In this document: positions 6,294 to 15,240 of the stretch, one piece after another
Layout: each line of letters opens with the position of its first letter
Position numbering within the stretch: the stretch's first letter is position 1
Source: a virus
Taxonomy: Duplodnaviria > Heunggongvirae > Uroviricota > Caudoviricetes
Strand: one strand, 5' to 3'
DNA length: 24,851 bases
IMG/VR virus record: IMGVR_UViG_2565956714_000001
Location: 1 to 24,851 of that record
The notes under the pieces: model-generated
What the model was told of the DNA's origin: nothing
The model's database searches: none
The model's input: only the letters and a program-made list of their open reading frames with translations
Translations under genes and position numbers: made by a program

Positions 6294-6425
6294 TTAATTT
6301 GCTCCAGATACAAGGAATCACCGCAGCGTGGCTACGGTTGGTGTTTGTTGCATACCGAAATGGTACGATTGTTGATTTGTACAGTAGGTTTTACGATGCC
6401 ATTCCACCCATTTGGTGAGGCATTG

Positions 6426-6683
6426 ATGATGTACAGCAAATACGATGAGGCGCAGTTCCACTTGAGGCTTACGCACGAGTTGCACGCTAAGATTAAGCAA
6501 CGTGCAAAAATGAATAACAGGTCTATCAATTCCGAAATTGTGGCTACGATGGAAGAATCACTCTCCAAACCATCACCTGTAAGCGGGTATCGTGATGAAG
6601 AAGAGAGGCTGGCCTCATTAATCTCGGAACGAGTAAAAGAAGTTGTGGCTGATATCCTTAGAAAAGAAAAAACCCGCAATTAA
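6426..6683 (+). CDS. mnt: Mnt-like ribbon-helix-helix repressor
   Basis: MMYSKYDEAQFHLRLTHELHAKIKQRAKMNNRSINSEIVATMEESLSKPSPVSGYRDEEERLA parallels P22 Mnt as recalled (RHH N-terminus and SKPSPVTGYRNDAERLA C-terminal region). GGTGAGG RBS precedes the ATG. The ORF-track frame from 5955 upstream is antisense to the tailspike and is not counted. Confidence 0.85.
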   Translation: MMYSKYDEAQFHLRLTHELHAKIKQRAKMNNRSINSEIVATMEESLSKPSPVSGYRDEEERLASLISERVKEVVADILRKEKTRN

Positions 6684-6697: not shown

Positions 6698-6919
6698 TTA
6701 GTTATCAAAAAGTCCGTACGTTTCTTCTTCTTCAGGTGTAAGGGGAAGAATCTCTACTCTATCTATAGATACCTTTTCAATGTACCCATGAGGTCTACTT
6801 AAAATTAAAGCTCTCTCATGCCACAGAACTCCAAGAATGTGATACCTTCCAGCATCTCCTTTTACCCTGGCTCTTCCTTTGATTCTTGGCGGCATAATGC
6901 CATATCTTTTCTTTGCCAT
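6698..6919 (-). CDS. hypothetical 73-aa protein, last gene of the arc-ant operon
   Basis: Start overlaps the upstream stop by 1 nt (translational coupling). Translation MAKKRYGIMPPRIKGRARVKGDAGRYHILGVLWHERALILSRPHGYIEKVSIDRVEILPLTPEEEETYGLFDN. No family recognised. Confidence 0.55.
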   Translation of the reverse strand: MAKKRYGIMPPRIKGRARVKGDAGRYHILGVLWHERALILSRPHGYIEKVSIDRVEILPLTPEEEETYGLFDN

Positions 6920-7644
6920 TATGCAACATTGCTCCCATGAATCAGGTGTTGTAGTGCTTTAACACCCTCCGCATTGTAGCGGAATGCTTCCACCTGTTTG
7001 CTTGAATGCGCAGATTTATCCAAGAAGAACTTCCCGTACTGCTCAGTTTTGAGGTTGTTTGCGTTAGCAATGCGACCAATCTTGTTTGCCGTTACTCCAA
7101 GCTGCTCTGCAACCTCCCCTGCTGAGTAGTAATGCTCTTCTATTGCTGGAAGAGGTATTGCATTAAAACCAACTATCGGGTTGATTATGCTTGCTGCCGC
7201 AGTCTGCTTTGCTTCCGGCGCAAGATTTGGCATCAAATCTAACAGATTGGTAACAGCTTCAACCGTCATTTTCAATGTTCGTGCCTGGCGATACTCAACA
7301 AGTCCACTCGACGATTTACCGCTTTTAATGTGCGCTTCTTGCATACTTTCAAGTTTGTCTACAAGTGTTCGGCGAACTGCTTTAGATTCGCGAGCAGCAA
7401 CACGAAGCGCCTGCTTGATAGTCATGGAGATAACATCAATGTCAGCCCCGTTTTTCCGACCTACACTTTTTGTGTAGGTCTCGCCCTCCAATTCATCCTC
7501 AATTTTCTCGATGAATTTGTTGTTACGTACTGATGGCTCTCCACATAACTTGCGAGCTTCATTAACCATCATCAGAAGACTTTGGCTGTCAATGGTTTTA
7601 TCCGTGACAACGGATCCGATGTTTGCTACATTCTTCAAAGTCAT
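6919..7644 (-). CDS. antirepressor-like protein (Rha/KilA-C/ANT-type C-terminal region)
   Basis: Start at MTLKNVANIG with an AAGGAA RBS. The C-terminal HYYSAGEVAEQLGVTANKIGRIANANNLK resembles the DNA-binding segment of ANT/KilA-C antirepressor domains. Co-oriented with the Bro-N gene upstream. Confidence 0.6.
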   Translation of the reverse strand: MTLKNVANIGSVVTDKTIDSQSLLMMVNEARKLCGEPSVRNNKFIEKIEDELEGETYTKSVGRKNGADIDVISMTIKQALRVAARESKAVRRTLVDKLESMQEAHIKSGKSSSGLVEYRQARTLKMTVEAVTNLLDLMPNLAPEAKQTAAASIINPIVGFNAIPLPAIEEHYYSAGEVAEQLGVTANKIGRIANANNLKTEQYGKFFLDKSAHSSKQVEAFRYNAEGVKALQHLIHGSNVA

Positions 7645-7732
7645 TAGGCATTCCTTATGTGGTAGTAAGGGTGTGACATAGGCCGCCAGCAGCACACTGG
7701 CGGTTTTCTTTTTGCGCCGTCCGGCGCACCAA

Positions 7733-8359
7733 TCAATGAATCCATTCCTCGCCGCGCAGTTTTGTCAGCATTGGCTGAGCGTTCTTTACGACAAAATTGT
7801 TGGTATCAAGATTCTTCATTTCACGAAGAAGTGATTTCTTGGTTTCTTCTGACATATAGCGAGTCTCATATGCAATATCGTAAATTCTTCCTGAAAGCTC
7901 AGAACCAATTTGCTTCATTCCTGGGTAGATGTGTTTGCACATTTGTTGACTCTTCTCCATCCACAATTGTAAGTAGCAGAGATTAACCAGTTCTTCGTCA
8001 GTAAACTGTTTTGCAATCGGTGAGCATTCTGCCTGCCGATCCAAAATATCCAGCACCCAGCGGCGGAACTCTTTGGCTACCGGAGTGCGAGCAAACATCG
8101 CGATTAGGTGGGCACCGCGTAGTGAGAAAACTCGCACTTTTTTGCGATAATTTCCTGAGGTACTCACTTCGAGTACCTGAGTCATTCCGGCGCTAAACTC
8201 ATCGCTATACTTGTTATAAATCATTGTTACTGCACGGCTATTTGCATATTTAAGTGCAGATGCAATATTAGATGATGTAAACCAAACACCATGCATATCA
8301 CGGGTGGGCACCAACTCAACTCCGTGGAAGTTGTAATCTGATTTTGCTACAATATTCAT
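7733..8359 (-). CDS. ant: antirepressor, Bro-N domain protein
   Basis: Start at MNIVAKSDY (AAGGAAAC RBS); the ORF-track start at 8464 has no RBS. FHGVELVPTRDMHGVWFTSSNIASALKYANSRAV is Bro-N-like. It lies downstream of the arc-like gene as in P22 immI. Confidence 0.75.
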   Translation of the reverse strand: MNIVAKSDYNFHGVELVPTRDMHGVWFTSSNIASALKYANSRAVTMIYNKYSDEFSAGMTQVLEVSTSGNYRKKVRVFSLRGAHLIAMFARTPVAKEFRRWVLDILDRQAECSPIAKQFTDEELVNLCYLQLWMEKSQQMCKHIYPGMKQIGSELSGRIYDIAYETRYMSEETKKSLLREMKNLDTNNFVVKNAQPMLTKLRGEEWIH

Positions 8360-8437
8360 GTTAGTTTCCTTGCATACGGTTACTGACATAGAGGCCCGGT
8401 TTGTGTTCGCGCACTGCCGGGCTTCACTATTTTTATT
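8360..8437 (+). ncRNA. candidate sar-like antisense RNA covering the ant RBS
   Basis: On the plus strand, an extended -10 element TGcTACAAT (8345-8353) sits just inside the ant 5' end. A directional hairpin GCCCGG...CCGGGC (8394-8422) followed by TTCACTATTTTTATT lies in the arc-ant spacer. Positional analogy to P22 sar. Confidence 0.3.
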
Positions 8438-8606
8438 GGATGACAACATCGCCCTTTGCCTCAAGTTTCATCAATAACTCCATTCGATAAGCTATCTCTG
8501 CCTGAATTGACCTATGGCATCTTTTTGCTGATTCGCGGATATGTGAATCAACCTTTTCTGTAAAACGAACCTGACGCGGCTTGATGGAAGATATCTTTTC
8601 AGTCAT
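8433..8606 (-). CDS. arc: Arc-like ribbon-helix-helix repressor (57 aa)
   Basis: Not in the ORF track (under 60 aa). Translated by hand: MTEKISSIKPRQVRFTEKVDSHIRESAKRCHRSIQAEIAYRMELLMKLEAKGDVVIQ. GGAG RBS 7 nt upstream. It is the first gene of the antirepressor operon, as in P22. Confidence 0.7.
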   Translation of the reverse strand: MTEKISSIKPRQVRFTEKVDSHIRESAKRCHRSIQAEIAYRMELLMKLEAKGDVVIQ

Positions 8607-8655
8607 TATGCACTCCTGTTTTTGAAAAACTCATAATCTCACTTTTTGTAGTTTG

Positions 8656-8684
8656 ATTATTCACTCACACTCAGTATGAGTCAA
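8656..8684 (-). promoter_or_regulatory. Pant-like sigma70 promoter with an embedded palindrome (candidate Arc operator)
   Basis: Minus strand reads TTGACT-17 nt-AATAAT upstream of arc. The inverted repeat ACTCA-gta-TGAGT (8669-8681) overlaps the -35 and spacer. Confidence 0.4.
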
Positions 8685-8705
8685 TGAATTTTTTATGGTG
8701 AACTA

Positions 8706-9347
8706 ATGAATTTTGACGATCAATTCCCATCAAGAGTATCTCTGGCAAGACAGTCCAGGGGTATGACGCAGGCGCAGTTGTCAAAATTAGCTGGTGTTGT
8801 TCAACGTCAAATAGCTGCATACGAGGGTGGTGAGGCTAAACCACGGCTTCGTGTATTGCAGGCATTAGCCAACGCATTAGGCACTACGGCTGAGTGGTTA
8901 GCTCTGGGTGAAGGTCAGGGGCCTGGAACAAAAAACGTCATGCCTGACGTTCTGGTAAAGCAAATACCAATCCTCAAACTAGATGAAGTTATGCATTACC
9001 TAAACACAGGTGAACATTCATCGTCTAGATTTCATCCGGCAATATACAATGTTGGTGACTCTGCATTTGCATTGACTATTGAAGGTGAAGCTATGACTAC
9101 AAGTTCAGGTATTAGCTTTCCCAGAGGATCAGTTGTCACGTTCAGCCCTCTAGTAAAAGCTAAAAGCAAAGATTATGTAATAGCATCATTGGATAAAGAG
9201 CAAATATTGAGCTTCAAGCAGGTTTACATTGGTGAAATAGAGACAAACTTAGTATCCCTAAACCCAATGTATCCTAATATTCTTGTTAGAAATGAAGATG
9301 TTAGTATTTTGGCAACCGCAGTTTACCTTGAAATCCCGTTGCTTTGA
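8706..9347 (+). CDS. lambda-CI-like regulator: XRE-type HTH plus S24 (LexA-like) C-terminal domain with catalytic Ser replaced by Ala
   Basis: N-terminal HTH MTQAQLSKLAGVVQRQIAAYEGGEAKPRLRVLQALANALGTTAEWLALGE. The C-terminal VGDSAFALTIEGEAMTTSSGISFPRGSVVTF aligns to lambda CI [33 protein letters not shown], with GCT (Ala, 9090-9092) where CI has the nucleophile Ser. The Lys of the dyad is retained (LSFKQVY vs FTFKKLI). No Ala-Gly cleavage motif is seen in the linker. Confidence 0.8.
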   Translation: MNFDDQFPSRVSLARQSRGMTQAQLSKLAGVVQRQIAAYEGGEAKPRLRVLQALANALGTTAEWLALGEGQGPGTKNVMPDVLVKQIPILKLDEVMHYLNTGEHSSSRFHPAIYNVGDSAFALTIEGEAMTTSSGISFPRGSVVTFSPLVKAKSKDYVIASLDKEQILSFKQVYIGEIETNLVSLNPMYPNILVRNEDVSILATAVYLEIPLL

Positions 9348-9411
9348 TATCCTTTAGGAAGCGACACATTATCATCCGGTGTTCTGCTCAAAACTAAGGA
9401 GTGGCTACTCA

Positions 9412-10050
9412 ATGAAAAAAATAGATATATATAGCGATACATCAGCCTATGTCATAGGCTCATTGGGTTTTTTAATTTTTTTTGTTTGGCAGTACCAGTC
9501 ACTATCTCCAGGATGGAGATTTTTGGGGATGTCTTTGATATCACTTGGTGCAGGAATAGCAACGCAGGTGTTGATGTATCTCTTTAATGGATGGATCTCA
9601 AAAAGAGTTGAGAAAAAAAGAGCTACTTCAATATGTAGAAGCCTAGCTATTCCAGAAGACTCTACAGATCAGGATGATATTGCAAAATGTTGGCGGTATA
9701 TGATTGCAAGATACTCAAATGAGTTACTGGCAAACAGACTGTCCGACTTAATCGGGATCGTAGTTACCTCTGTTGGAACAATCATCAGTATAGGGATATC
9801 AATTTGGTATGTCGGGATGATTGTCTATTTTGTTTGGAATAGAGACTTCAATGAACCTTCCCTTCTTTTTATACCTTTATTTTTCAGGGTATTAGCATTC
9901 ATATGTGAGTTATTGCTCTCTTTTTTCTGCAATGTTTTGTTCAACAGATACCCAGGTGAAGCAAGAAAGTTTAATAAAAACTATGATGAGTTAAGGAGAA
10001 CAGATCCTTTTCTATCAAGCAAAGAGTTCCGCGATTCCATTCGCAATTAA
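9412..10050 (+). CDS. inner-membrane protein with four predicted TM helices; possible SieA-like superinfection exclusion protein
   Basis: AGGAG RBS before the ATG at 9412. Four hydrophobic segments are visible in the translation. The DNA is AT-rich. It occupies the slot where P22 has sieA; the function is positional inference only. Confidence 0.55.
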   Translation: MKKIDIYSDTSAYVIGSLGFLIFFVWQYQSLSPGWRFLGMSLISLGAGIATQVLMYLFNGWISKRVEKKRATSICRSLAIPEDSTDQDDIAKCWRYMIARYSNELLANRLSDLIGIVVTSVGTIISIGISIWYVGMIVYFVWNRDFNEPSLLFIPLFFRVLAFICELLLSFFCNVLFNRYPGEARKFNKNYDELRRTDPFLSSKEFRDSIRN

Positions 10051-10100: not shown

Positions 10101-10165
10101 TGATCTTACCCAGCAATAGTGGACACGCGGCTAAGTGAGTAAACTCTCAGTCAGAGGTGACTCAC

Positions 10166-10465
10166 ATGACAAAAACAGTATCAACCAGTAAAAAACCCCG
10201 TAAACAGCATTCGCCTGAATTTCGCAGTGAAGCCCTGAAGCTTGCTGAACGCATCGGTGTTACTGCCGCAGCCCGTGAACTCAGCCTGTATGAATCACAG
10301 CTCTACAACTGGCGCAGTAAACAGCAAAATCAGCAGACGTCTTCTGAACGTGAACTGGAGATGTCTACCGAGATTGCACGTCTCAAACGCCAGCTGGCAG
10401 AACGGGATGAAGAGCTGGCTATCCTCCAAAAGGCCGCGACATACTTCGCGAAGCGCCTGAAATGA
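10166..10465 (+). CDS. insE: IS3 transposase OrfA (InsE, HTH)
   Basis: [54 protein letters not shown]... matches the recalled IS3 InsE. Confidence 0.92.
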
Positions 10466-11328
10466 AGTATGTCTTTATTGAAAAACATCAGGCTGAGTTC
10501 AGCATCAAAGCAATGTGCCGCGTGCTCCGGGTGGCCCGCAGCGGCTGGTATACGTGGTGTCAGCGGCGGACAAGGATAAGCACGCGTCAGCAGTTCCGCC
10601 AACACTGCGACAGCGTTGTCCTCGCGGCTTTTACCCGGTCAAAACAGCGTTACGGTGCCCCACGCCTGACGGATGAACTGCGTGCTCAGGGTTACCCCTT
10701 TAACGTAAAAACCGTGGCGGCAAGCCTGCGCCGTCAGGGACTGAGGGCAAAGGCCTCCCGGAAGTTCAGCCCGGTCAGCTACCGCGCACACGGCCTGCCT
10801 GTGTCAGAAAATCTGTTGGAGCAGGATTTTTACGCCAGTGGCCCGAACCAGAAGTGGGCAGGAGACATCACGTACTTACGTACAGATGAAGGCTGGCTGT
10901 ATCTGGCAGTGGTCATTGACCTGTGGTCACGTGCCGTTATTGGCTGGTCAATGTCGCCACGCATGACGGCGCAACTGGCCTGCGATGCCCTGCAGATGGC
11001 GCTGTGGCGGCGTAAGAGGCCCCGGAACGTTATCGTTCACACGGACCGTGGAGGCCAGTACTGTTCAGCAGATTATCAGGCGCAACTGAAGCGGCATAAT
11101 CTGCGTGGAAGTATGAGCGCAAAAGGTTGCTGCTACGATAATGCCTGCGTGGAAAGCTTCTTTCATTCGCTGAAAGTGGAATGTATCCATGGAGAACACT
11201 TTATCAGCCGGGAAATAATGCGGGCAACGGTGTTTAATTATATCGAATGTGATTACAATCGGTGGCGGCGGCACAGTTGGTGTGGCGGCCTCAGTCCGGA
11301 ACAATTTGAAAACAAGAACCTCGCTTAG
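10462..11328 (+). CDS. insF: IS3 transposase OrfB (InsF, DDE catalytic domain); expressed as an OrfAB fusion by -1 frameshift
   Basis: [36 protein letters not shown]... with DDE-type motifs ([17 protein letters not shown]). It overlaps insE in the -1 frame. Confidence 0.92.
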
Positions 11329-11341
11329 GCCTGTGTCCATA

Positions 11342-13159
11342 TTACGTGGGTAGGATCAGTATTGGTCTGATGGCATTTGCGGCGTTATTCAGCGCTCTTT
11401 CATAGGCTGGCGTTCCAGCTTTAGTGTTTGCCAGACGTAAGAGCGCATTCCTTGCTGCTTTGGACTCATACAAGCGCATCATTGCACCGAAACCAGCCTC
11501 AAGCCCCATTGATACGCCAAGAGTCGCAGTTGCGCCAATCGTCCTTATCCTGTTGGCTTGCGATTGCCCCGTCTGAGTTACTACATTTGCGGTGTCTGAC
11601 CTTGCTGTTTGCTGTAGAACTTCATTAAGAGCATCAAGTTCTTTCATGTGCTTTCCAGAAAAAATAGTGTTGTAAATTTCACCTCCTGACTGAGATTTCA
11701 GCTTATTAACTTCAGTGATGAACTTGGCTGGAGAGTCACCGGCCTTTTCCGCTATTTTGCTGACGTAAGCTGCACGCATAGCATCTTTCCCTTTATCATC
11801 CAGTGCGCTCCAGATTCGTTTCACGTCAGATGGTTTTCTGCTTAATACAACGGTATTTATAAGTTCAGGACTGGCTTCACTGCTTGCCTTGTTGAGCTTG
11901 TTGGCAATGTTTTTATTAAGCACCTTATTATAAACGTTTGCATAATCGGAATTTGCTTTAAGGTATTTTGCTGCGTCTGATGCACCGAGGTTTTTAGCAA
12001 CTGCGTTACGAAGGTCTTTTGACATTGCATTCTCTACCATATTGGTAGCTGCTTTTGCCTGGTTGGGGAAGACCATAGCATCTCCCTGAACATTAGATCT
12101 AAATGCTGTTCTGTGCTGACGCAAGAGATCAAACGTAACATCCAAATCAGTTGCAGGGTTTGCTAATTCTTCACGTAGGTTACGCAAGGATGTAAGCAGG
12201 CTTTGATTGGCTGAAGTCCCAAGCCGTTCCTGTCTTGCGATCGCTGTATTCAGAGCATTCATGGTATTTGTGGTATCAACTGCGGCATTACCCATTTTAT
12301 TGGTGACGTCATTGATAACAGCGCCAGCAGCATCCTTCCGCCCCCTTAACGTGGTGGTCAGAGATTTCACCACATCATCAGGGTTGTACTCACCAAAACG
12401 GTCAAAATAATTGCTTACCAGCTTACTACGCGTTGCATATTGCTCCGCTCGCTTTGAGCCTGTCCCGAGCAAAGCCCCCTCGGCATCCTGAGTAAGGCCG
12501 CGAGTGAAAGCATTTTTCGGCGGGATAACATCAGATGTCATTGGTGTCACGCCCATCGATTCTGATGTGGCAATTTTCTTCGCCACTTCTGGCGCAATAT
12601 CACCTTTTATAGCCGTTATTCCACGCCCTATTCCCTTTGCTGCTGCGGAAAGAACACCCTGAGCGGCAAGGTTAACTCCGGCATTTTTAGCTGCATTTTG
12701 TGCGAAATCGCCTTTCTGATTTGCGGCCTCTGCCAGTGATCCAATAGCCATGCTTCCTGCCGTTCCAACTCCTGGAACTAAATACCCGCCAATTGTTTCT
12801 CCAGCTTGCGCATAAGGGTCTGTTGGTCGATCTACTGGACGATAGACATCGTCCAAAACCTTGGGGCCACCAAGCCCCTGGCTGATTGCATTAATCAGAC
12901 TTGCGCCACCCTGCAATACGTCAAATGGTATATTTACCAGACCACGACCAGCCTGCTCTGCAATTTGCCCTGCACTTTGACCACCAGTGAGCAAGTCAGT
13001 AGCTTTTTCTACCAGAGATTGTTCTTCTGGCTGCGATTGGTTTTGAGTGGATTGATCACCAGAAGACAGCATCTGAGCAATGCGACGTGCTCCCTCAGTA
13101 TCACCAGCAGCATCAGCATTCCTTAACGCCGTCATCAATTGTTCACGACTATAGGCCAT
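11342..13159 (-). CDS. ejection (pilot/internal) protein, P22 gp16-like; C-terminus altered by the IS3 insertion
   Basis: 605-aa ORF at the gene 16 position, co-oriented and coupled to the gp20-like gene. Its last codons and stop (11342-11358) lie inside the IS3 right end. Confidence 0.8.
11359..11361. repeat. IS3 target-site duplication, right copy (GTA)
   Basis: GTA immediately after the IS3 right end, identical to 10098-10100. Confidence 0.7.
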
Positions 13160-14544: not shown

Positions 14545-15240
14545 TTAAAACAACGAGCCAAGCAGGCCAAGTCCGCCACCGATTGCGGCGCCTAATCCAG
14601 TACCAAGACCGGGAACAATAGAACCAAGAGCGGCACCAGTCATAGCTCCTGAAGCTCCTCCGCTAATTGCTGTCTGAAGACCGGATGGCTTATTGGCATT
14701 AGCAGCGGCGAGAGCTGCGCTTTGCTGTGCAATGCTGCTCATGTTGTTGGCGTATGTCTGCCCGGCGTTCGCCTGACCTTGCAACGCACCAAGGCCAATG
14801 TTTGCCAGATTGTTGTAGTTGCTCATCTGGTTTGATAGCCACGACTGACCGAGAGTCGGCGCAATCGTAGCCAGTTGATTGCTTGTGGCTGTCGATCCAA
14901 GTCCACCCGTTGCCTCCGCAGCAGCAAGACTCTGGTAACGCGCCTGACCTGCAAGGTCTTTATACTGCTGAGAGTTGTAATACTGATTAAGTGCCTGCCC
15001 CTGTCCTTCTAAACTGGAAAGATTCTGAAGCTGGTTAACATACTGCTCCGCAAGCGGCGTGAACGGAGCAAGGTTTTTCATGATCGTCTGCCACTGCTGA
15101 TTTTGCAGGTCTGCGGCATACTTCTGAGCTTCTGCTGCATACTTTGTGCTTTTATCAGAACTGCCACCTTTCCCGCCTTTTTCAGGGTAATAAGGTTCCT
15201 CGCCGCGCAGTTTTCTGCCCAGCGTAAATGCATATAACAT
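14545..15240 (-). CDS. ejection protein, P22 gp7-like
   Basis: 231 aa, N-terminus MLYAFTLGRKLRGEEPYYPEKGGKGG, with a Gly-rich hydrophobic C-terminal segment. Synteny with gp14 and gp20. Confidence 0.8.
   Translation of the reverse strand: MLYAFTLGRKLRGEEPYYPEKGGKGGSSDKSTKYAAEAQKYAADLQNQQWQTIMKNLAPFTPLAEQYVNQLQNLSSLEGQGQALNQYYNSQQYKDLAGQARYQSLAAAEATGGLGSTATSNQLATIAPTLGQSWLSNQMSNYNNLANIGLGALQGQANAGQTYANNMSSIAQQSAALAAANANKPSGLQTAISGGASGAMTGAALGSIVPGLGTGLGAAIGGGLGLLGSLF

Follow-up and report, generated by a model that had tools for sequence, protein, structure and literature searches.

The 24,851-nt stretch of DNA considered here in its full length (IMG/VR virus record IMGVR_UViG_2565956714_000001; hereafter the window) very probably encodes a cis-antisense RNA gene that is a divergent homologue of sar from phage P22 and that lies in the 'ant moron' of a P22-like prophage of Escherichia coli. 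The predicted RNA (8360..8434, plus strand; about 72–75 nt) would be transcribed over the translation start of ant (7733..8359, minus strand), which is its target gene and encodes a 208-aa antirepressor. The production of this RNA, the positions of its ends and its ability to repress the translation of Ant are proposed by analogy with P22.

Features of the predicted antisense RNA gene

The start codon of ant is read on the plus strand as CAT at 8357-8359, and the same start is annotated by RefSeq in an identical copy of the gene. On the strand opposite ant, a Psar-like extended −10 element, TGcTACAAT (TGCTACAAT; 8345..8353, plus strand; hexamer TACAAT at 8348-8353), can be read directly from the sequence inside codons 3-5 of ant and aligns with the TGcTATACT of P22 Psar. 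A weak −35-like hexamer, TGGAAG (8325..8330, plus strand), which shares 3 of 6 positions with TTGACA, is found 17 nt upstream of the −10 and is probably dispensable. The RNA most likely starts at G8360, a position predicted because the geometry is identical to that of the annotated sar of P22, and ends at about 8431-8434; its 5' G would thus adjoin the ant AUG and its 3' end would be located in a U-tract.

The RNA 8360-8437 folds into two stem-loops with a free energy of −33.3 kcal/mol (z = −6.2), a value that none of 200 shuffled sequences equals. The 5' stem-loop (SL1; 8360..8387, plus strand), closed by the pairing of 8360-8365 with 8382-8387, carries an anti-Shine-Dalgarno (anti-SD) sequence TTTCCTT (8365..8371, plus strand). 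This sequence is the complement of the ant Shine-Dalgarno (SD) AAGGAAA, whose GGA core is located 7 nt before the AUG. The 3' stem-loop (SL2; 8391..8425, plus strand) has the organization of an intrinsic terminator hairpin. It includes a 10-bp lower stem (8391-8400 paired with 8416-8425, with GCCCGG at 8394-8399 and CCGGGC at 8417-8422), a small internal loop, a 4-bp apical stem (8403-8406 paired with 8411-8414) and a UCGC loop, the apex being GUGUUCGCGCAC. G·U pairs represent 4 of the 22 predicted pairs and would be A·C mismatches on the other strand; three of them belong to SL2 and can form only in the plus-strand RNA. On the plus strand, the hairpin is followed by ACTA, TTTTT (8430-8434) and then ATT. 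The putative terminator U-tract TTTTTATT (8430..8437, plus strand) overlaps the TAA stop codon (8433-8435) of an arc-like gene located upstream of ant. As the sequence that follows the hairpin in the minus orientation, TATGTCAGTAACC, is not T-rich, the terminator can be read on the plus strand only.

These features agree with the original prediction, which was made from the sequence alone. The extended −10 opposite ant, the complement of the ant start codon, the GCCCGG...CCGGGC hairpin about 35 nt further on (it begins 35 nt after the start codon), the terminator in the plus orientation only and the complementarity of the transcript to the ant ribosome-binding site (RBS) are all present as it had described them. 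The prediction had proposed a transcript of about 75 nt running from about 8360 to 8437; the start and the size are retained given the P22 geometry, but the 3' end is more likely at 8431-8434. The folding of the RNA and the alignment with the P22 sar region, which it had put forward as checks, both gave results in keeping with its reading.

Relationship with sar of P22

The sar gene of P22 encodes a 68/69-nt RNA, close to the ~69 nt given in the original prediction, that pairs with the ant mRNA and blocks its translation (PMC12197685). This RNA was recovered by small-RNA sequencing of infected cells (PMC13397905) and a Sar RNA is annotated in another P22-like phage (PMC2629481). In the P22 record, sar is a misc_RNA feature (15021..15090) carried by the strand opposite arc-ant, with a promoter (15097..15125) inside ant and a terminator at 15021..15058. 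As arc ends at 15022 and ant starts at 15091, sar occupies the whole intercistronic region and ends 2 nt inside arc.

The RNA of the window shares this layout. Both RNAs are antisense to the arc-ant intercistronic region, with a 5' end that abuts the ant AUG and a 3' end located at the stop codon of the arc or arc-like gene, and both belong to an 'ant moron' that a P22-like genome carries between the genes of its ejection proteins and that of its tailspike. Around the start, TGcTATACT-ATTCAT-G of P22 corresponds to TGcTACAAT-ATTCAT-G in the window, the six bases that follow the −10 and the predicted +1 G being identical. The alignment of the window with P22 (alignment A1) includes the conserved blocks TTGCTAyAmTATTCATGTTrGTTT, TTACTGAC and GCCC...GGGCTTCA, and the two RNAs are identical at 42 of 72 aligned positions (58%). 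P22 sar folds (−29.5 kcal/mol, z −5.3) into an SL1 with a 6-bp outer stem and an SL2 of 14 pairs with a 4-nt loop. The SL2 of the window likewise has 14 pairs and a 4-nt loop, but it differs by a 3-nt internal loop (UU/U) and by an apical closing pair that is G:C instead of C:G; its U-tract is better than that of P22 sar. The genes that surround the RNA also differ. P22 Ant has an N-terminal P22_AR_N domain whereas that of the window has a Bro-N domain, and P22 has a recognizable Arc upstream and a divergent Mnt, whereas the window has an unrecognizable Arc and a divergent repressor with helix-turn-helix (HTH) and peptidase-S24 domains.

Conservation of structure and promoter in related loci

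A scan of IMG/VR for the promoter and 5' motif shared by the two RNAs retrieved at least 119 loci, among which a P22 type, a window type and intermediates can be distinguished. The RNAalifold consensus of 28 distinct sar-type RNAs (alignment A2) includes both SL1 and SL2. Pairing is possible in 97.9% of the alignment cells versus 33–49% when the 3' partners are slid, and in 98% of those of SL2 versus 33–55%. Pair 4:26 (the fourth pair of SL1) is seen as A:U, G:U or G:C, and pair 42:63 is found in five types. The covariance model built from A2 (R2) collected 74 matches, 68 of them distinct; in the latter, aligned to the structure of the model (alignment A6), 91.4% of the cells are paired versus 26–51% with slid partners. 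Compensatory changes affect 11 of the 19 pairs (4 of 6 in SL1 and 5 of 10 in the lower stem of SL2), values that were not reached in any of 500 shuffles. An anti-SD (CCTC, CTCC or TTCC) is found at the equivalent place in those sequences of the family that were listed.

A family-level covariance model (R1) was built from 41 sequences selected by their hairpin, which include no P22-type and no SymR sequence. It matches P22 sar exactly at the annotated gene (29.9 bits, E 3e-5). In 726 kb searched with R1, no sar site falls below 21.9 bits, and the best apparently unrelated match scores 18. The RNA of the window reaches 76 bits with R1 and 82 bits with R2, scores that are high partly by construction since window-type sequences are included in both models.

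The promoter was assessed independently by rescanning IMG/VR with a pattern derived from the hairpin alone, which gave 144 matches corresponding to 90 unique loci. In 141 of these 144 matches, an opposite-strand open reading frame (ORF) of at least 50 aa starts at a CAT located 33–40 nt upstream of the hairpin. The hexamer TAnnnT is present in all of the 90 unique loci and the full TGnTAnnnT in 57 of them, the background for the latter being 1.6% of 25-nt windows in related loci; where the full motif is present, it ends 3–4 nt before the CAT in 55 cases out of 57. The lengths predicted for the RNAs of these loci range from 72 to 83 nt. The targets found behind this positionally fixed −10 are Ant proteins with a Bro-N domain, Ant proteins with a P22_AR_N domain and Icd-like proteins. 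The putative promoter, anti-SD and terminator therefore keep fixed relative positions even when the target proteins are unrelated. The proposal that the RNA is a sar analogue is thus supported by the homology with P22, by the layout, by the covariation of the two hairpins and by the match of R1 to P22 sar.

Proposed mechanism and alternative explanations

The regulation of ant can be pictured as follows. The TG-extended −10 located inside codons 3-5 of ant would start transcription at G8360, in the direction pointing away from ant. The resulting transcript of about 72–75 nt would carry the anti-SD UUUCCUU in its small 5' stem-loop and would end at the strong hairpin and the U-tract that covers the arc-like stop codon. 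Its sequence complements, without any mismatch, the entire intercistronic segment of the arc-like/ant mRNA, itself presumably made from a convergent Pant-like promoter. Pairing would cover the ant SD up to the AUG and block the loading of ribosomes; the synthesis of the antirepressor would fall while the upstream cistron would be spared. RNase III might cleave the duplex as well, and some interference could come in addition from the convergent transcription.

Several observations weigh against this interpretation. The −35 is poor (3/6) and the position of the P22 −35 (GTGTTA) is not kept, as the spacer has a 6-nt gap in alignment A1. The U-tract begins 4 nt past the stem and is interrupted. 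The interrupted stem of the SL2 hairpin and its nominal loop of more than 8 nt explain why a consensus terminator scan of the window did not list it. A consensus promoter scan of the window did not list Psar either; given the interrupted stem and the lack of a good −35, these scans are uninformative here. The loci of A2 were chosen with a pattern that included the promoter, so that the conservation of the promoter within A2 is not independent evidence, whereas the set of 90 hairpin-selected loci is independent; the fitting of A6 to the structure of the model biases the pair counts towards that structure. Finally, no Rfam family reaches its gathering threshold in the whole window, and in 8250-8720 the sar family RF00262 (gathering threshold 43 bits) remains without any match even at E<=10, a sub-threshold symR match being the only notable one there, when the same RF00262 model scores P22 sar 97.8 bits. 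The RNA of the window is accordingly filed as a divergent relative of sar and not as a member of RF00262 by the Rfam criterion, because the curated model does not reach this variant. To take the lack of an Rfam sar match as evidence against kinship with sar was rejected given the direct alignment with P22 and the narrowness of RF00262.

The hairpin might instead act in the sense arc-like/ant mRNA, through processing, stability or translational coupling, TGcTACAAT being a mere by-product of ant codons and no antisense RNA being made. The hairpin does lie between the two cistrons of the operon, a less stable version of it can still fold on the minus strand, and part of the conservation of the promoter, which lies in the conserved N-terminal codons (MNIVA), could be driven by the protein. 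This explanation is nevertheless very improbable. The ant-sense strand reaches only −19.5 kcal/mol (z = −1.95) versus −33.3 kcal/mol (z −6.2) for the plus strand, the family retains G·U pairs that would correspond to A·C mismatches in the mRNA, and it is on the plus strand alone that a T-run comes after the hairpin. Furthermore, the −10 stays at a fixed distance in front of targets as unrelated as Bro-N Ant, P22_AR_N Ant and Icd-like proteins, and the homologous element of P22 is a demonstrated RNA (PMC13397905). A protein product of the plus strand has almost no chance of being the explanation: the program-made ORF list includes a 39-aa frame (8358-8477, ATG at 8358), but the predicted transcription start (8360) lies downstream of this ATG, which is not preceded by any SD, and the terminator (8391-8434) would truncate the frame. 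Moreover, the equivalent frame of P22 stops after 9 codons and, in relatives, unrelated arc-type genes replace the sequence downstream of the hairpin. This small ORF was rejected on account of the start located past its ATG and of the terminator located inside it.

It is also unlikely, although the RNA would be made in this case, that its main role is something other than the masking of ant, such as acting in trans on host mRNAs or other phage mRNAs, interfering with transcription from Pant or serving as a decoy for a protein that binds RNA and recognizes the near-invariant hairpin. Such roles would be in keeping with the conservation of SL2 far beyond the needs of a terminator, since CCCGG...GUGUUnnCGCAC...CCGGG recurs beside unrelated flanks and the hairpin is 85% identical in P4-like elements, and interference would suit the convergence of Psar and the Pant-like promoter about 290 nt apart. 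Against them, the variable 5' part keeps an anti-SD opposite the target RBS in all subtypes and the first base of the RNA falls on the start codon or beside it; the P22 precedent is moreover one of translational repression (PMC12197685). The positions of the anti-SD and of the start in all subtypes suggest that RBS masking is the function that has been selected.

Comparison with other antisense RNAs

Three other regulatory RNAs resemble the RNA of the window in some respects. SymR, a cis-antisense RNA of 77 nt, has its promoter within the coding sequence of symE and covers the RBS of its target (PMC1891008). SymR (RF01809) has two hairpins like the RNA of the window and the same apical GUGUUnGCGCAC in its 3' hairpin; it differs in that its target, SymE, is an AbrB-fold toxin-like protein and not an antirepressor, and in that its locus is chromosomal and not a prophage ant operon. 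The symR model gives the window only 21.8 bits (E 0.084; gathering threshold 61), which does not make it a SymR, and no SymE_toxin domain was found in the target protein of the window by Pfam searches.

The C4 RNA of P1 and P7 is not encoded by the opposite strand: it is released by processing from the transcript that also carries its target, at a position upstream of the latter, and works by means of short complementary loops. It prevents the synthesis of the antirepressor by pairing around the RBS of the icd-ant mRNA (PMC12197685). No match to the Rfam C4 family was found in the window. In lambdoid phages, the effect of OOP RNA relies on decay dependent on RNase III and not on RBS masking. 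It is a cis-antisense RNA of about 77 nt that has its own promoter and intrinsic terminator and tunes a regulator of the lysis-lysogeny decision (PMC12197685). OOP overlaps the 3' end of cII whereas the RNA of the window overlaps the RBS of ant; it has no sequence relationship to the latter and no Rfam match in the window.

Genetic context

The window corresponds to the late region of an E. coli prophage of P22-like type. Several complete E. coli chromosomes match segment 8320-8620 with 100% identity, and Escherichia phage JEP4 (genus Lederbergvirus) matches segment 7700-8720 with 96% identity. PHROG searches identified on the minus strand the genes of the portal protein, the major head protein, two ejection ('DNA transfer') proteins and the tailspike; they also detected an insertion sequence transposase in the window. 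The regulatory insert is located between the ejection-protein genes and the tailspike gene, i.e. at the position of the P22 immI region, or 'ant moron', among P22-like phages (PMC2629481).

The product of ant carries Bro-N (Pfam, 1.9e-10) and P22_AR_C (2.8e-14) domains and matches the PHROG anti-repressor Ant (4e-54). It shares only P22_AR_C with P22 Ant (29% identity over 69 aa of the C-terminal domain, E 1e-9), its N-terminal domain being Bro-N and not P22_AR_N. The gene directly upstream of ant (8433..8606, minus strand) occupies the position of arc, and its function is assigned from this position only. It encodes a 57-aa protein in which a Pfam search did not find the Arc repressor family (PF03869). 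This protein belongs to phrog_10182 (function unknown) and shows a match to the ParD_like ribbon-helix-helix family of 19.8 bits, below the cut-off; it is probably a ribbon-helix-helix protein whose gene is co-transcribed with ant.

A consensus scan detected a Pant-like sigma-70 promoter (TTGACT-17 nt-AATAAT, 10/12 matches; 8656..8684, minus strand), which, judging from this consensus match alone, would drive the arc-like gene and ant; it is convergent with Psar at a distance of about 290 nt. A 13-bp palindrome, ACTCAgtaTGAGT (8669-8681), overlaps its −35 and is a candidate operator. The place of mnt in P22 is occupied by a divergent gene (8706..9347, plus strand) that encodes a C2/LexA-like repressor (Pfam HTH_3, 9e-13; Peptidase_S24, 1e-12) and whose homologue in JEP4 is annotated 'repressor protein C2'; the gene divergent from the arc-ant promoter is therefore not mnt. 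As this divergent repressor is C2/LexA-like, with HTH and peptidase-S24 domains, it is suggested that DNA damage could directly induce the ant operon. A gene of the Mnt/Arc family (PF03869, 9.5e-15) is found at 6429-6683 (plus strand), beyond the ant operon and facing the tailspike gene. A homology of the sequence upstream of it (6294-6428) with the Pant/Omnt region of P22 was considered and dropped, as no convincing alignment was obtained.

A second antirepressor-like gene (6919..7695, minus strand; phrog_1726, 2e-100, no Pfam match) follows ant in the operon and lies outside the region covered by the antisense RNA. The ORF list also includes a 73-aa ORF downstream of ant, on the same (minus) strand. 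Further away, an insertion element made of two overlapping ORFs, orfA and orfB (10157-11328, plus strand; transposase phrog_157, 1e-130), is located between a SieA-like gene (9379-10050) and an ejection-protein gene (11342-13159); it may be absent from relatives such as JEP4.

Distribution and modularity

The window-type RNA is carried, at 95% identity or more, by 58 of 5,426 complete E. coli genomes, in which it is apparently unannotated. Among 50,697 deposited phage genomes searched by BLAST, only JEP4 carries it. No RNA feature is annotated at this site in the JEP4 record or in the RefSeq records of E. coli.

The conserved block begins about 15 nt within ant and reaches the upstream gene's stop codon, and the genes on both sides are exchanged; the antisense gene therefore acts as a mosaic module in its own right. 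In the IMG/VR loci, the same terminator is followed by arc-type genes of many kinds. The 5' end of ant is shared by Salmonella phage SPN3UB only up to the start codon, and its sar-like RNA (locus L281, 1540-1621; 30.7 bits with R1) has another combination of SL1 and SL2. The coding sequence annotated as 'anti-repressor Ant' in SPN3UB (L281, 901-1623) runs 84 nt further upstream, across the sar-like RNA and into the Arc-like gene; its start codon is probably mis-annotated, as the CAT at 1537-1539 matches the start found in the family.

A cassette identical to that of the window, i.e. the repressor gene, the 57-aa gene, the sar-like RNA and ant, is found in E. coli STEC299 (L123, 8414-10028). 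It is carried there by a prophage that has baseplate and tail-fiber genes (baseplate J, DUF3383) and is not a P22-like podovirus, which indicates that the cassette moves between phage types. No RNA is annotated at this copy of the cassette. Some viral contigs carry two sar-type cassettes (L019, 1229-1306 and 4268-4349; L191, 5805-5886 and 8365-8443). On L019, the window-type cassette adjoins a canonical cassette made of mnt, arc and a P22-type ant; the second sar of this contig combines an SL2 of P22 type with a different SL1.

A wider family of hairpins

The hairpin core CCNGTTNGTGTNNNCRCACTKCNGGG marks a larger family across Enterobacterales. About 100 of the 120 IMG/VR hairpin loci listed are new relative to the scan with the Psar/ant-start pattern. 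A scan of genomes with the hairpin gave 57 loci, almost all from Enterobacterales, including Erwinia, Serratia, Pectobacterium, Yersinia, Budvicia, Pantoea and Klebsiella. The three matches outside this order (Anaerolineae, Planctomycetota and Streptomyces) do not show the arrangement of a CAT followed by an ORF and were discarded as chance matches.

Besides antirepressors, the second major class of targets consists of small Icd-like proteins (NCBIfam NF033153, 1e-19). A hairpin that is 85% identical to that of the window is found at the 5' end of Icd-like genes of P4-like elements, and the annotation of one locus, on the chromosome of E. coli MLI106K2 (L122, 2452-2562), places the Icd-like gene in a P4-like integrative element; loci of the same type are found at L126, L127, L161, L173 and many other loci of the IMG/VR and genome scans with the hairpin. 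In these loci, TGgTATGAT precedes the complement of the start codon and a different, covarying SL1 carries CCUC. Antisense RNAs of about 80 nt, unannotated so far, are thus predicted over the RBS of Icd-like genes. No Rfam family reaches its gathering threshold in eight Icd-type loci; the symR model aligns over its full length with an Icd-type RNA (34.8 bits, E 3e-5), below its gathering threshold of 61. Conversely, R1 finds symR of E. coli K-12 at its annotated position (L223, 3836-3912; 24.7 bits), and SymR shares the apex GUGUUGGCGCAC with the hairpin family.

There is about an even chance that sar, the window-type RNA, the Icd-type RNAs and SymR form a single homologous superfamily of RBS-masking cis-antisense RNAs of about 72–83 nt, distributed across Enterobacterales. 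Its members would have a promoter located in the first codons of the target, a variable 5' hairpin that carries the anti-SD and a terminator hairpin with the near-invariant apex GUGUUnnCGCAC. Termination alone would not require an apex so well conserved. This conservation suggests that the members either share a protein partner, which as a matter of speculation might be of the ProQ type that binds 3' hairpins, or derive from a portable 'antisense cassette' placed by recombination ahead of various genes of toxic or regulatory function. Rfam 15 does not include this wider family, and no description of it was found by a full-text search of the literature, whose coverage leaves out most subscription journals.

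Biological significance

The mechanism proposed for the window is the one expected for a P22-like phage; what is new is a variant that current databases miss, and pipelines based on Rfam do not detect the window-type RNA. The classical sar circuit would thus operate, or at least be conserved, well outside P22, here in an E. coli prophage in which Ant has a different N-terminal domain, the 'arc' gene is unrecognizable and a LexA/C2-like repressor takes the place of Mnt. If the wider family is confirmed, a phage regulator known from textbooks would be connected with a chromosomal RNA that resembles type I antitoxins, and the hairpin would offer a simple means of searching prophages and satellites for many regulatory RNAs that are not annotated.

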